From a virus (lineage: Duplodnaviria > Heunggongvirae > Uroviricota > Caudoviricetes): a stretch of DNA of 38,573 nt. A program made the translations under genes and the position numbers. The DNA is taken from the IMG/VR virus record IMGVR_UViG_2706794695_000013; one strand, given 5' to 3'. Under the pieces are notes generated by a model. That model searched no databases. It saw only the letters and a list, made by a program, of their open reading frames with translations, and was not told where the DNA came from. How positions within the stretch are numbered: position 1 is the first letter of the stretch; each line of letters begins with the position of its first letter. This document shows positions 27,977-33,099 of this stretch, in pieces.

Positions 27977-28786
27977 TCAATGAACGGTATCGAGCAGCTT
28001 TAACAGCTCAGGGAATCGGGATTCGAAGAAATGCGGCTGCGTCTCGCGCGGATTTGCAGGACTGGTGATGTTCTTGCCGAACATGCAGCCTTTCGCCGTC
28101 AGCGACCAGAATTTTTTGATGTTGTTAATCGCGGTACGGCTGTATCGTTCGCGTTGTTCAACGATCCCCAGCTTCACCATCTGGTGATATGCCTGATTAG
28201 CCGTCAGGCGGATACCATACTGCTTCAGCAGTGCACTCAGCGACAGCGTGGGGCGACTTGAGCCATCAGGCGCGTCAGCAGGAGCATCAATGGCATAGCG
28301 CGGTGCCAGATTCGGTAAGCCAACAGCCTCCTGAAGCTTCTGACAGGCTCCAAGCACTGATGAGTTAGACAGATTTAATTCCCGGCGCATAAAGTCCAGC
28401 AGGATCACGCCAGCCTGCATCTTGTCAGCAGCCTGTCCGGATAATTTTTCCGGTGCGCTGGTTACCATGTCGAAAGTACGGATCACCTTCAGATGGAATG
28501 ACGGGCTGATCCACATTGCATAGGCATACACCAGTTCTTTGCAGACATACGTCCCCTGGTTATTTCCGCCATTAATGACGCTAACTGGTTGATTTTGTTC
28601 CAGAGGCGGAATTCCACCCTCGGTGAAAAGTTGTTCAATCAATTCACAGGTTTGCTTATTGGAGAGCCAGTATTTCGGGCGGTTTTTTTGTTCTCCCCCG
28701 GCTGCCCTGTGCAGATCGTTCAGGCTGTAACGCCCATAAGCATCACGACGAACTTCAATACCATCAATGACCATCAGATTATTCAT
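27977..28786 (-). CDS. KilA-N domain protein (antirepressor-like)
   Basis: From ATG 28786 (AGGAG SD): MNNLMVIDGIEVRRDAYGRYSLNDLHRAAGGE... typical KilA-N N-terminus. Confidence 0.65.
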   Translation of the reverse strand: MNNLMVIDGIEVRRDAYGRYSLNDLHRAAGGEQKNRPKYWLSNKQTCELIEQLFTEGGIPPLEQNQPVSVINGGNNQGTYVCKELVYAYAMWISPSFHLKVIRTFDMVTSAPEKLSGQAADKMQAGVILLDFMRRELNLSNSSVLGACQKLQEAVGLPNLAPRYAIDAPADAPDGSSRPTLSLSALLKQYGIRLTANQAYHQMVKLGIVEQRERYSRTAINNIKKFWSLTAKGCMFGKNITSPANPRETQPHFFESRFPELLKLLDTVH

Positions 28787-28805
28787 ACTTCGTTTCTCCT
28801 CTTGA

Positions 28806-29195
28806 TCAGGCGGCTGCACCCGCCGGTTTCTCATACTTACTGATAGTGATCTCGACCTTCCCTTTCTGGATAACCGGTCCCCACTCCACCAGCATTCTTT
28901 TCACCTGGCTGTCGTCTTCCCACACCCCCGCGTGGGTCAGGGCGTCAAACAGCGCCTTGTTATAGTTGTCCAGATCGCGGATCCGGTTATCCGGAGGAAA
29001 CAACACGATCTCCACTGAAGCAGGTGCCGACGTTGGTTTTGGCAGACGACGTAACTGCTCAACTATTGCTGCGCACGCCGCGCTCTGAAATTTTCGCCCC
29101 GCCGCGCTTATCAGGCTCTTACCAGCAAATGCCCCTTTGTTGGGGTGTCGCCAGTACGTGTTCACGCTGGGCGGGAAAGGCAGGATCAGCTTCAT
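28806..29195 (-). CDS. rusA: Holliday junction resolvase RusA
   Basis: 129 aa; ...PPSVNTYWRH...DLDNYNKALFDALTHAGVWEDDSQV... matches the RusA family. Confidence 0.85.
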   Translation of the reverse strand: MKLILPFPPSVNTYWRHPNKGAFAGKSLISAAGRKFQSAACAAIVEQLRRLPKPTSAPASVEIVLFPPDNRIRDLDNYNKALFDALTHAGVWEDDSQVKRMLVEWGPVIQKGKVEITISKYEKPAGAAA

Positions 29196-29518
29196 ACTTT
29201 CAGGCCTCTCTCATGTAACCAGTGGGTTGCACGCAGCCTGGCGTTTTCCTCACCGGCAAGCAGTGAGCGGATAATCCCGACCGCCTCGCTGTCGTCGTCC
29301 TTCACCGCGGTATGAAGAGTGATACCCCGGGCCATGCCACGCTTTATCGTGATGACGCCTTTTTTCTCCAGTGCGCGAAGATGTTCCACCGCTGCATTCA
29401 CTGAACGGTATCCCAGCATGGTTGCCACCTCCTGATTGGTTGGCGGGAAGCCACGTTCTTTCTGGTAAGAAATCAGCATATCCAGCACCTGCTGCTGGCA
29501 TTGAGTTAACGTCGTCAT
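29192..29518 (-). CDS. LexA-type winged-helix DNA-binding protein (DNA-binding domain only)
   Basis: 108 aa; LTQCQQQVLDMLISYQKERGFPPTNQEVATMLGYRSVNAAVEHLRALEKKGVI resembles the LexA N-terminal domain. Confidence 0.55.
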   Translation of the reverse strand: MTTLTQCQQQVLDMLISYQKERGFPPTNQEVATMLGYRSVNAAVEHLRALEKKGVITIKRGMARGITLHTAVKDDDSEAVGIIRSLLAGEENARLRATHWLHERGLKV

Positions 29519-30168
29519 GCCGCCATCTCCCTGACCAGTTTTTCCGCCTGCTGGCGAACCTGCGCCAGAAACGCCTCACCACATGCCTCAAGTTCATCGC
29601 GCCCGATGTAGCTGATTGCCGGTCCCTTCCAGGTCTTGTCGAAAACAGCAATAGCACCAGCGAAGAAAGCGCCTGTCGGCACCTGCTTCTCGTCCTTCGG
29701 GATAAACCAGGCAGGCAGTTCAAAACCAATACGCCCGCGAATAAAAGCAATATGATCTGCATCTTCCGGCCACCACACTTCGCTGGTGGCAGCTTTGATC
29801 AGGAAAACATAGCGTCCGCCCTTATCACGCATGGCACTGGCATGTTTCATGATGTAACGCATGCCGGTGATGTATTGCCCTTCATGCTGACTGGCGCGGC
29901 TGTACGGGGGATTACCAAAGGCAGCACCTTTAAGCTCCGCAAGACGTTCAGACCAGTCATGCGCCAGCGCGTTGTCTTCCGCAGTGTAATAAGCGGCACA
30001 TTTGGCGTTATCACCATCAGTGAACAGATCCAGAACAAACGGGCCAAACAGGGTGTTAATTCCCCAGAAAATGTTATCCGGCGTGCGCCACTGATCGCCC
30101 ACTTCCTTCAGTTCATGGGCTGGTTTGTTCCGCAGCTCCACCAGCGCCTGGCAATATTTATTACTCAT
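29515..30168 (-). CDS. Phage Dam-type N6-adenine DNA methyltransferase
   Basis: From ATG 30168: MSNKYCQALVEL...; catalytic NPPY motif (AFGNPPYSRA). Confidence 0.8.
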   Translation of the reverse strand: MSNKYCQALVELRNKPAHELKEVGDQWRTPDNIFWGINTLFGPFVLDLFTDGDNAKCAAYYTAEDNALAHDWSERLAELKGAAFGNPPYSRASQHEGQYITGMRYIMKHASAMRDKGGRYVFLIKAATSEVWWPEDADHIAFIRGRIGFELPAWFIPKDEKQVPTGAFFAGAIAVFDKTWKGPAISYIGRDELEACGEAFLAQVRQQAEKLVREMAA

Positions 30169-30662
30169 TAAGCCCCCACGTAATTCCCTGACAGATACCA
30201 CTCTTCACCCGATGCAGCGCGCTTGCTGCTTTTCCGTAAGCACCGCTCACGACGCGCCAGAAAATTGTTTCGTTCTGGCTGGGAGTGGCTTTCACGGAAT
30301 GCCGCCATCCACACCGTTGCAGCACGACGGTATAAGCCCCTGGACTCCAGTTCTTCCGCCTGGCGGGTCAGGCACAAAATCACCCGGGGATCGTTAGTGC
30401 CGACATAGAAATTGCGCACAGGTCTGGTTTCACGAACTGGTTGTGGTTCCGGCTCCTGCGCTCTCTCAGTCAGGCGTGGGAAATGTCTGCGTGTATCTCC
30501 TTCATAACGGTGAGCCACACGCCCACTCTGACGTAACTTGCTTGCTGACTGCAGAACGCGCTGCCGTGAGTAACCTGCAAAAGCATCCGCAATGTCTCCG
30601 GAAGTACACCCCGGATGGGCTTCAATGAATTTCTGAACTTCATTCAAAAGACTCATGATCAC
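30168..30662 (-). CDS. PerC-family (Pch-like) transcriptional regulator with N-terminal extension
   Basis: C-terminal ELESRGLYRRAATVWMAAF fits the PerC signature L-E-x2-G-L-W/Y-R-R-A-A-x2-W; track start is GTG, ATG at about 30656. Confidence 0.5.
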   Translation of the reverse strand: MIMSLLNEVQKFIEAHPGCTSGDIADAFAGYSRQRVLQSASKLRQSGRVAHRYEGDTRRHFPRLTERAQEPEPQPVRETRPVRNFYVGTNDPRVILCLTRQAEELESRGLYRRAATVWMAAFRESHSQPERNNFLARRERCLRKSSKRAASGEEWYLSGNYVGA

Positions 30663-31477
30663 CCCCTGAATCCTGCCGGGATCTGGCTGTAGTCCACGTT
30701 GTCGTAACTGGCTTTGAAGTACGGGTCCTCGCGTCTGGCTGCAGATACCGCAGGAACTTCCCAGAATTCTTCGAAATGACGATCCGGACCAAAGAACGTG
30801 ACAGCCTGTTTCACAAATTGTGTGCCGCTGTTACCCATCGCAGATACCCATCCCGCGTAGCGTTTCACACCTTCCAGCATGGTTTCGGGGTTTACTCCCT
30901 CATTCAAACGGGCTTTCCAGGCTTTGAAGGCTGCAGATTTTGAATTGCCACCAGCACGTTTGGGATATGCCAGCCATGCCTGCTCAAACTCCGGAGAGTA
31001 TTCCGGTCGGTTTGAACGAACTCGCACGGACTCATCAACTGATGCACCAACAGCTATTGGTTCATTGACTGGTTCTTTGACTGGTTCAAAAGAGTGACTG
31101 GTTCTGGGTGAATCTCCTGCACTACCCCCTGGTGCAACTCCTGCACTACCTGGTGAATTTGCTGCACCAGATAGTGAATTATTTGCACTACCCCCTAGTG
31201 AATCTCCTGCACCATCCAGATGAAGGAGATAGATATTACTTGAGTTACCTTTTTCACCTTTCCGGGTGACTTTTTTTACCAGCCCGGACTCACAAAGGGC
31301 CGCAATATGATTCATCACAGAACGTTTGCTAATTTCGCACTGGTCAGCAATATGCTGGTAGCTGGGCCAGCACTCACCCTGATCGCTGGCATTATCAGCC
31401 AGCTTGATCAGAACCAGTTTTCGCAATGGATTACCCACTCGAATTTTCATCGCTTTAACCATCAGCTCCATACTCAT
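30659..31477 (-). CDS. Replication initiator, lambda O-like (HTH N-terminus, iterons inside the gene)
   Basis: 272 aa; central repetitive Gly/Ser/Ala linker is encoded by the iteron array, as in lambda O. Confidence 0.7.
   Translation of the reverse strand: MSMELMVKAMKIRVGNPLRKLVLIKLADNASDQGECWPSYQHIADQCEISKRSVMNHIAALCESGLVKKVTRKGEKGNSSNIYLLHLDGAGDSLGGSANNSLSGAANSPGSAGVAPGGSAGDSPRTSHSFEPVKEPVNEPIAVGASVDESVRVRSNRPEYSPEFEQAWLAYPKRAGGNSKSAAFKAWKARLNEGVNPETMLEGVKRYAGWVSAMGNSGTQFVKQAVTFFGPDRHFEEFWEVPAVSAARREDPYFKASYDNVDYSQIPAGFRG
31107..31217. repeat. Iteron array (candidate origin), about five imperfect ~22-bp direct repeats
   Basis: ggtgaatctcctgcactaccccct / ggtgcaactcctgcactacct / ggtgaatttgctgcaccagata / gtgaattatttgcactaccccct / agtgaatctcctgcaccatcc, followed by an AT-richer stretch. 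Confidence 0.6.
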
Positions 31478-31710
31478 GCTGCACCTCCGAGATGCTTCAT
31501 GTTTTTTCCGGAGCGAAAGGCTATAAGCGGCATACTGACGCGGTAATTACGGCCCAGCGGTTCACAAATCACCTTCTGGCATTCACGGTCAACCAGGCTA
31601 ACACGTAGAACATGCCCTGCAGGCGTGGTGTACCACTGCCCAACTGTAGGAATTGATATTTTTTTACGCTGAAGCAAACGGCAAATATTGAGGATCAACG
31701 GATTAAGCAT
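31474..31710 (-). CDS. Hypothetical protein, 78 aa
   Basis: GGAGG SD 8 nt upstream of the ATG; overlaps both neighbours by a few nt (coupled translation). Confidence 0.45.
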   Translation of the reverse strand: MLNPLILNICRLLQRKKISIPTVGQWYTTPAGHVLRVSLVDRECQKVICEPLGRNYRVSMPLIAFRSGKNMKHLGGAA

Positions 31711-32539
31711 GACGATGCCCTCCGCTGATATTCAGGAGACGGTGAATATGAAAATTAGCCTTATCCGCCAGACGAATACGTTCAGCTTGCAAGTTAAGAA
31801 GGGTTTCTACCAGAACCTGATGTGCCTGCGGATCCGAAAGAGTTACCTTGCGCAGAGCACGTAGTGCAGTTGTTACATAACTGAGTTTATGTAAGTCTTC
31901 ATCATTCAGACGAGTGAGGGCTGGGACAGTAGCCATGATGGCAGCCTCCTTGATCGGTGAAATACTTCCACCACCGGAAACGCCAATTTCGCTGGTGGTG
32001 AACTGAACGGGGTTGGCGTAACCGGTGATCAAGGAAACCGGCGCATCTTTCGATGCCCCCGCCCAGCCCACCATAACTTTGATGTGAGCAAATGCGGACG
32101 ATAAAAAAGACGCTGGCGCGTCATATATCGCCTTGATCAATTCCAGGACGCCAATCCCGGCACCCGCTTTATAAGGTGCCTGAACAGTGTAACGTCCCGG
32201 AATGGCAGAATCAATGTGCTGGTGGTCCTTCACACTCAACAAAATCACGCCTGAATTTCCACAAAGGACTAAAGCACTCATGCGGGTAGTCTTTGCGAAG
32301 ATAGATAACGCGCTGTGTTTCTGGCTCCCAACGAATAACATGAACATAAAGTCCTCTTCCGTCACGAAACCAGCGGTTAAGTTCCTGCACAACTCGCCCC
32401 CCACAGTCAGGTAAAGTTCTCTGTGGTTACTTACAGCCAGGTGATTTGGTAATCTGCATTCATGCCGTAACAACAGGTGTTCAGCGACGCTGACCACCAG
32501 CTGTTGCGACAAACGGTTATTTGCCGTTAAACTGTTCAT
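31703..32539 (-). CDS. Hypothetical protein, 278 aa
   Basis: GGAG SD upstream of the ATG; ATGA-type overlap with the upstream gene; no Walker motif or recognisable family. Confidence 0.5.
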   Translation of the reverse strand: MNSLTANNRLSQQLVVSVAEHLLLRHECRLPNHLAVSNHRELYLTVGGELCRNLTAGFVTEEDFMFMLFVGSQKHSALSIFAKTTRMSALVLCGNSGVILLSVKDHQHIDSAIPGRYTVQAPYKAGAGIGVLELIKAIYDAPASFLSSAFAHIKVMVGWAGASKDAPVSLITGYANPVQFTTSEIGVSGGGSISPIKEAAIMATVPALTRLNDEDLHKLSYVTTALRALRKVTLSDPQAHQVLVETLLNLQAERIRLADKANFHIHRLLNISGGHRHA

Positions 32540-33099
32540 GCGTTAGTTTCTCCACAGACACAAAACGCCACGACGCCCGGAGCTGCACACTCGCGGGCGT
32601 CACTCTTTTCTGGAGCGCAAAAGATTTTGTAGACCAGTGCTGCATGCTCCTGGAGCTTCGAAATTGACAGATACAACTCATCATTAATTGCTGTCTGCTC
32701 GTGTGGCTCCACTACCCCATCTTCGATTGCCGAACGAATCTGCTTTGAGTAACTCCCGATCTGTTCGATGACTTCCAGCAGGCGCTGGTTTATATCGGCG
32801 TTCTCTACTTCCTCAATTTCAGGAAGCGATACAAACACCCCACCAGCAGACTGTGCGACAGCATCCGCAATGTAGTGAGTGCCAGCCGCGCGCTGTAAAA
32901 TCATTGCCCATCCCAGCGGGAAAATCTGATCGCCATCTGCACGAAGGCGGTTGAATAAAGCGTTCTCTGTTACATCCAGCCACTCAGCAGCTTCAGCGTA
33001 ACCCCCCGGCAACGCCGCGATAGTTTTTCTGACAGCTTTCACGTACCACTCAGGCTGTTTTTCTACTTTCCAGTGATGCTTACCCACGGTTAGCCTCAT
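32536..33099 (-). CDS. Hypothetical early protein, 187 aa (possibly a CII/CP76-like regulator)
   Basis: First gene after cro in the early-right operon; acidic C-terminal half; family assignment is from memory only. Confidence 0.45.
   Translation of the reverse strand: MRLTVGKHHWKVEKQPEWYVKAVRKTIAALPGGYAEAAEWLDVTENALFNRLRADGDQIFPLGWAMILQRAAGTHYIADAVAQSAGGVFVSLPEIEEVENADINQRLLEVIEQIGSYSKQIRSAIEDGVVEPHEQTAINDELYLSISKLQEHAALVYKIFCAPEKSDARECAAPGVVAFCVCGETNA

Follow-up and report, generated by a model that had tools for sequence, protein, structure and literature searches.

Systems related to the gene considered here include the PerC/Pch regulators and the ANR proteins. Pch lowers H-NS occupancy, and without the H-NS/StpA/Hha silencing complex it does not activate LEE1; H-NS was not co-precipitated with PchA (PMC4764244). 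ANR proteins have three conserved helices (PMC4983702); one of them, Aar, has no domain for DNA binding and interacts directly with AggR and H-NS (PMC4983702, PMC5570504). LEE activation is not a general property of the PerC family, having been demonstrated for PerC and PchA-C only. In a ler::lacZ assay, Pch group 1 activated ler, PchD had no effect and PchE gave less than 2-fold (PMC5931665). LEE1 fusions did not respond to the PICI PerC-like proteins of EDL933 and CFT073 (PMC11773190, citing Porter 2005), and EcCIMP1_025 repressed LEE1 (PMC11773190). The gene yfdN, which is deleted in the ler::lacZ reporter strain, was named 'the K12 unique PerC homologue' (PMC5931665); in the K-12 annotation its product is still 'uncharacterized protein YfdN'. 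In the literature excerpts retrieved, no YfdN-specific experiment was found, and the other mentions were entries in screen or expression tables, including the list from a CFT073 nitric-oxide transcriptome, where yfdN appears among the prophage genes.

The window analysed here (the whole stretch of 38,573 nucleotides, IMG/VR record IMGVR_UViG_2706794695_000013) is a lambdoid prophage whose head and tail genes resemble those of lambda and whose early region resembles that of SfV. The open reading frame at 30168-30662 (minus strand) is a real gene, with a product of 164 aa when counted from the GTG at 30662, the RefSeq start. The ATG at 30656 is the likelier start, because a GGGGG run ends five bases before it and the distant relatives all open with MSL or MSI at this point; the resulting protein is 162 aa long (MSLLNEV...; gene at 30168-30656, minus strand). 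Residue numbers throughout refer to this 162-aa form.

The window protein shared 159/164 residues (97%) with YfdN of K-12 (b2357, CPS-53/KpLE1 cryptic prophage), 96.9% identity with the product of orf40 of Shigella phage SfV ('transcriptional activator') and 68.5% with Sb43 of Salmonella phage ST64B. Genes 95-99% identical to the window yfdN were present in SfII, SfIV, mEp460 and many Stx2c/Stx2a phages. PHROG 1324 ('transcriptional activator') matched residues 1-161, full length (E 1.3e-77); full-length similarity and the same neighbourhood place the gene in the YfdN orthologue group (PHROG 1324; RefSeq 'yfdN'). The 2.2-kb region around yfdN was 100% identical at the DNA level in four complete E. 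coli genomes, where the RefSeq label is 'yfdN: PerC family transcriptional regulator', and was matched in about half of complete E. coli genomes (2731/5426). By these comparisons, the window gene is an ordinary copy of yfdN, a common E. coli prophage gene. The initial annotation had presented it as a discovery; it was already annotated and named, and its PerC assignment is likewise known from RefSeq and from a published paper. As a finding, the gene carries little weight, being already called a PerC-family regulator and lying in a region so widespread.

The C-terminal segment had been assigned to the PerC family, and the alignments bear this out. The core concerned (30207-30392, minus strand; aa ~89-150) is of the PerC/ANR three-helix type and contains the motif ELESRGLYRRAATVW at aa 101-115. 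The Pfam model PerC PF06069 matched the window protein with E 7.6e-9 and 36.2 bits, above the gathering cutoff of 22.6, and it matched each of the 32 proteins of the wider YfdN family too. The match covered aa 98-149, corresponding to profile positions 5-56 of 90, and the C-terminal half of the profile (positions 57-90) was absent from the window protein. The protein also differs from a small single-domain member of that family (~90-105 aa), having 162 aa with a winged helix and a linker.

Reference sequences for pairwise comparison were pchA, pchD and pchE from E. coli O157:H7 Sakai and perC from the EPEC plasmid pMAR7 (products of 104, 89, 90 and 89 aa, respectively). Similarity to the window protein over the motif region was significant in every case: BLASTP gave 40% identity over 52 aa with PchE (E 5e-10), 41% over 44 aa with PchA (E 1e-7), 37% over 46 aa with EPEC PerC (E 1e-6) and 33% over 46 aa with PchD (E 1e-5). 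When the profile of the 32 YfdN proteins was compared with that of PerC/PchA/D/E by hhalign, YfdN positions 98-150 were paired with PerC positions 6-58 (probability 98.3%, E 2.7e-14, 53 columns). Residues A100, L103, E104, G107, R110, R111 and A112, together with W116, R129, R136 and C139, were identical in the window protein, PchA, PchD and PchE. Homology of the window protein to the PerC core is, on these alignments, well beyond chance. No counterpart in YfdN of the PerC/Pch region past residue ~55 was found in the alignments.

The same core is related to the ANR proteins. The NCBIfam ANR model NF033650 matched aa 96-142 of the window protein with 23.6 bits, under its cutoff of 32, and the protein (~18 kDa, two domains) also differs from the stand-alone ANR proteins of <10 kDa. 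The model matched 20 of the 32 YfdN-family members at E <0.01 (best E 4e-9), and matched PerC/PchA/D/E weakly (13.6-18.2 bits). Judged by these profile matches, PerC, Pch, ANR and the YfdN C-terminal domain have one common three-helix core of ~50 residues.

An N-terminal extension of roughly 90 aa had been proposed; it is real, at ~95 aa, and consists of a winged-helix domain (aa 1-58; 30483-30656, minus strand), which would be DNA-binding, followed by a linker (aa ~59-88; 30393-30482, minus strand). This assignment was made because the AlphaFold2 topology and the profile matches to solved winged helices agree with it. In the AlphaFold2 model, built from 20 homologues (mean pLDDT 72.9), the N-terminal domain had helices at residues 3-13, 19-25 and 31-44 and then a beta hairpin (pLDDT 83-90), residues 51-83 were of low confidence (pLDDT <50), and the C-terminal domain had three helices at 90-105, 109-122 and 126-149 (pLDDT 90-96) forming a TPR-like core. 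The first ~60 positions of the family profile matched the solved structures of BlaI (E 1.9e-4), a MarR protein (8.8e-4) and MecI (2.6e-3), and matched weakly a PapI homologue (2htj, 'P fimbrial regulatory protein KS71A', E 0.0045); single family members gave weak Pfam matches to Penicillinase_R, MarR_2 and HTH_24. The N-terminal domain has both the features that a winged helix calls for, three helices with a beta-hairpin wing and profile similarity to solved domains. By pLDDT and the alignments, the linker is variable and probably disordered. The C-terminal tail (EWYLSGNYVGA; 30171-30206, minus strand) was modelled with low confidence and is conserved in relatives.

When 1.84 billion representative proteins were searched exhaustively with HMMER, 99 matched at E 0.001 or better, of which ~30 had 138-165 aa and aligned over their full length with 24-48% identity. 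In the family alignment, the winged helix, the PerC core and the tail were conserved and the linker differed in length and sequence. The tail motif W-x-L-[AS]-G-x-[YF]-x-G was kept in these relatives and was missing from PerC and Pch. The alignment indicates purifying selection on both domains and the tail, and because relatives down to 24% identity keep all three, the two-domain architecture of YfdN is old and maintained by selection, rather than the product of a local fusion. The winged-helix nature of the N-terminal domain, the linker, the restriction of the PerC/Pch likeness to an ANR-resembling core of ~50 residues, the YfdN-specific tail and the retention of this architecture and gene setting in distant relatives are new detail beyond the existing annotation. 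P0202 (462 aa, with six 'PerC-like' stretches), a secreted repeat protein of eukaryote-like character, was set aside as a chance match. When YfdN was scanned with PADLOC, just a meaningless 13-bit match to GajB came up, and a defence role was unsupported.

Within the window, yfdN follows directly on the replication gene, as the initial annotation had it, and its location between that gene and the Q antiterminator fits the 'nin' placement given there. The replication gene (30659-31477, minus strand) encodes an initiator with HTH_36 (Pfam E 1.8e-11) plus a DnaD-like C-terminal part, matches PHROG 270 ('replication initiation protein', E 2.4e-88), and overlaps the yfdN start region with its stop codon. 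On the other side, the yfdN stop overlaps by one base (TAATG at 30168) the start of a gene for a Dam-type N6-adenine DNA methyltransferase (29515-30168, minus strand; Pfam Dam PF05869 E 9.7e-46, TIGR01712 E 1.5e-76). The stops and starts of nine minus-strand genes overlap or abut, from a cII-like gene (32536-33099) to a KilA-N gene (27977-28834); these early genes include an ash-family gene, a small ORF, the initiator, yfdN, dam, a gene for a LexA DNA-binding domain only, and rusA. No sigma-70-like promoter site was seen upstream of yfdN. From this layout and the lambdoid paradigm, we infer that the cluster is a translationally coupled early-right operon, repressed in the lysogen. Because yfdN lies in a tightly packed operon of this type and has no promoter-like site of its own, YfdN is probably produced when the prophage is induced and not during lysogeny.

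Several side observations were made in the same region. Direct-repeat clusters were present inside the initiator gene at 31058-31212, comprising three copies of TGACTGGTTCT and three ~39-nt units with GTGAATCTCCTGCACTACCCCCT; they fall in the part encoding a low-complexity GGSANNS... linker and resemble origin iterons (compare the lambda ori within gene O). The LexA-domain gene at 29192-29518 (minus strand) encodes a 108-aa protein with the LexA DNA-binding domain alone (PF01726, E 2e-19) and no S24 peptidase domain; it is labelled 'LexA repressor' in RefSeq, recurs as the second gene downstream of YfdN-like genes in distant relatives, and its product could be a non-cleavable LexA mimic. The SfV and cdtI RefSeq records, like PHROG 33262, call the Dam-type methyltransferase (window 29515-30168, minus strand; L002 5489-6142; L054 4444-5637) a 'phosphoadenosine phosphosulfate reductase'. 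This label probably spread from fusion proteins, because the PHROG 33262 profile spans 495 positions and Dam makes up its C-terminal part. In some relatives, the Dam proteins have 397-423 aa, with an extra C-terminal region of ~200 residues without a Pfam match.

A 59-aa DUF4222 ORF (32211-32390, minus strand; MQELNRWFRD...IRWEPETQRVIYL...) overlaps, in another frame, the 5' part of the ash-family ORF at 31703-32539. In RefSeq it is a separate gene and the ash gene is made shorter, SfV has a single 837-nt orf37, and the small ORF is conserved in the distant relatives L008, L061 and L062. The KilA-N protein (27977-28834, minus strand) had a weak match at residues 89-124 (E 1.2e-6) to the PADLOC candidate defence model PDC-S22. 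In E. coli A14, which carries an identical prophage, a reverse-transcriptase-domain gene lies just past the tail-fibre assembly gene (L090 22871-24001); it falls outside the window, just past its position 1, and could be retron-type cargo at the prophage end.

Alongside the observed identity of YfdN, its homology to the PerC core, the winged-helix N-terminal domain, the operon position and the conservation of family and context, we propose, at about even odds (probability roughly 0.5), that YfdN is a small two-domain regulator of SfV/CPS-53-type lambdoid prophages, acting via the winged helix and the PerC/ANR module. YfdN would be made from the early-right operon after induction and would be placed on DNA by its N-terminal winged helix. 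The C-terminal three-helix module would be a probable protein-contact or nucleoid-remodelling surface, with the PerC/ANR core altering a nucleoid-protein or transcription-factor complex at the YfdN-bound site. Transcription would change where YfdN binds, most likely on phage or other horizontally acquired DNA, by analogy with Pch and ANR. The putative DNA binding, partner protein, targets and direction of regulation are all drawn from such analogy. The suggested contact with H-NS leans on ANR, because PchA did not co-precipitate H-NS, and the window protein matches ANR below threshold; the behaviour of Pch may not transfer to YfdN, because the C-terminal half of PerC/Pch is missing. Counting against the regulator model, a repeat search around the gene gave no convincing candidate operator repeats beside yfdN.

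The setting of yfdN was compared across related loci, collected from IMG/VR via five seed proteins and from GTDB genomes via a degenerate motif. YfdN-like ORFs were located by HMM and their neighbours were classified, giving 80 loci in 19 clusters at 90% identity, a small sample in which one cluster is dominant. The degenerate-motif scan of genome contigs contributed 18 loci as fixed 8-kb blocks, many with matches so near the edge that the neighbours were unreadable, and the seeds P0148 and P0187 gave no viral loci. In 14/19 clusters the upstream neighbour was a replication initiator (HTH_36 and/or Phg_2220_C, with several N-terminal types) overlapping the YfdN-like gene; it was RecT in 4/19 clusters (the Kluyvera subgroup) and unassigned in 1/19. 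The downstream neighbour was a DNA methyltransferase in 56/69 readable loci (10/15 readable clusters), of four kinds: Dam PF05869, D12 class, MT-A70 and a C5+D12 fusion. The remaining downstream neighbours were a LexA-domain gene, a ParB-like gene or DUF7740; the LexA-domain gene followed the YfdN-like gene directly in Shigella flexneri and two viral loci. Within one 90% YfdN cluster, the downstream gene was Dam (21 loci), D12 (5) or missing (5), and similar initiators were paired with YfdN alleles only ~30% identical, the reverse being seen as well. Because the methyltransferase kind is swapped within one cluster and the initiators pair with diverged YfdN alleles, the pattern is that of a fixed slot in a mosaic genome and not of a co-evolving pair.

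Other settings were also encountered. The Kluyvera loci (L065, L067, L068, L072, L076 and L077) encode divergent YfdN-like proteins of 138-156 aa with weaker HMM scores; because RecT is upstream, these genes are placed in the recombination and not the replication module, and in L072 and L077 the readable downstream gene was DUF7740. In Sakai SpLE1 (L004 32944-35147), pchD directly follows ibrA (PAPS-reductase-like) and ibrB (ParB-like), and a Pantoea YfdN-like gene (L070 263-2102) has a ParB-like gene as its downstream neighbour. PerC-core genes may recur beside DNA-modification-type genes in unrelated contexts.

This conserved setting allows a reading in which the YfdN family is part of a lambdoid replication-and-DNA-modification module and not a free-standing transcription factor, serving either as a loader stand-in beside DnaD/Phg_2220_C-type initiators or as a coupler of replication and methyltransferase. 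We regard it as unlikely; if true, the PerC fold would gain a role outside virulence regulation.

In a rival to the regulator model, YfdN would be an accessory of the phage replication module occupying the helicase-loader slot, aiding the initiator at the origin or in the recruitment of host DnaB/DnaC. In other lambdoid phages, the slot after the initiator holds a helicase loader, lambda P or a DnaC-like protein; in two other lambdoid prophages, both of Sakai, the gene right after the initiator encodes a DnaC/IstB-like ATPase (Sp4) or lambda P (Sp8). A scan of the nine early genes showed nothing resembling P, DnaC or DnaB, nor did the RefSeq annotation of the remaining prophage, and the iteron-like repeats within the initiator gene lie ~400-550 bp upstream of yfdN, which itself overlaps the initiator in most clusters. 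Such a role is nevertheless quite improbable: YfdN carries neither an ATPase nor any known loader domain, recruitment could fall to the DnaD-like/Phg_2220_C domain of the initiator itself, the Kluyvera genes follow RecT instead, initiator and YfdN do not co-vary, and mosaic lambdoid genomes commonly keep a gene position while its alleles are exchanged.

A further rival, in which YfdN controls the orphan DNA methyltransferase encoded downstream or partners with it, C-protein-like or PapI-like at methylation-sensitive sites, is quite unlikely as well. The frequency of a methyltransferase downstream, of whichever of the four kinds, the overlapping stop and start codons, the weak profile match to the PapI homologue and the adjacency of pchD to ibrA/ibrB are all consistent with it, but the exchange of Dam for D12, or its absence, within a single YfdN cluster argues against a specific partnership, as does the LexA-domain gene that directly follows in Shigella flexneri and the two viral loci. 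The SfV record, moreover, annotates a separate dam promoter inside orf40, and the counts come from a small locus sample dominated by one cluster.

That YfdN is a Pch-like LEE/ler activator switching on host type III secretion genes, the prophage-to-host cross-talk suggested in the initial annotation, finds no support here and is very unlikely: the homology to the PerC/Pch core is real, Stx2c and Stx2a phages of O157 carry near-identical copies and Pch group 1 proteins do activate ler, but YfdN is without the C-terminal half of PerC/Pch, the PerC homologues outside group 1 (PchD, PchE and the PICI PerC-like proteins) have little or no activating effect on LEE1 or repress it, the presence of the gene in LEE-less K-12 and of its region in about half of complete E. 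coli genomes leaves its distribution untied to LEE, and yfdN is expected to be silent in the lysogen. During induction, YfdN may have an effect on host genes.

Returning to YfdN as a two-domain prophage regulator, a core common to PerC, Pch, ANR and YfdN, fused in YfdN to a winged helix, could help to explain these poorly understood small regulators. The fixed place of YfdN between an initiator and a swappable methyltransferase, with no recognisable loader, provides a testable hypothesis for a long-uncharacterised y-gene.

Compared with known systems, YfdN resembles PerC and Pch in a core of ~50 residues with the pattern A-x2-L-E-x2-G-x2-R-R-A-x3-W...R...R-x2-C, at 33-41% identity. In PerC and Pch (89-104 aa, single-domain) this core is N-terminal and is followed by a C-terminal part of ~40 residues, whereas in YfdN it is C-terminal, stands behind the winged helix and linker, is followed by a conserved tail of its own and lacks the PerC C-terminal part. 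With the ANR proteins (Aar, Cnr, Rnr), YfdN shares the three-helix module of ~50 residues, the window protein matching profile positions 5-51 of 54. The ANR proteins are stand-alone, <10 kDa, without a DNA-binding domain, and accompany AraC-type virulence regulators; YfdN has two domains and, unlike the ANR loci, no AraC-type gene was found near the window yfdN. The likeness to BlaI/MecI, MarR and PapI concerns the N-terminal ~60 residues (profile E 1.9e-4 to 4.5e-3, with agreeing topology) and is at the fold or superfamily level only, since the dimerisation domains of BlaI/MecI and MarR are absent from YfdN. Closest of all are K-12 YfdN, SfV orf40 and ST64B Sb43, which have the same neighbours, a replication gene upstream and a methyltransferase downstream; the flanking yfdO and yfdM of K-12 are truncated remnants, whereas the window operon is intact, and there is otherwise essentially no difference.
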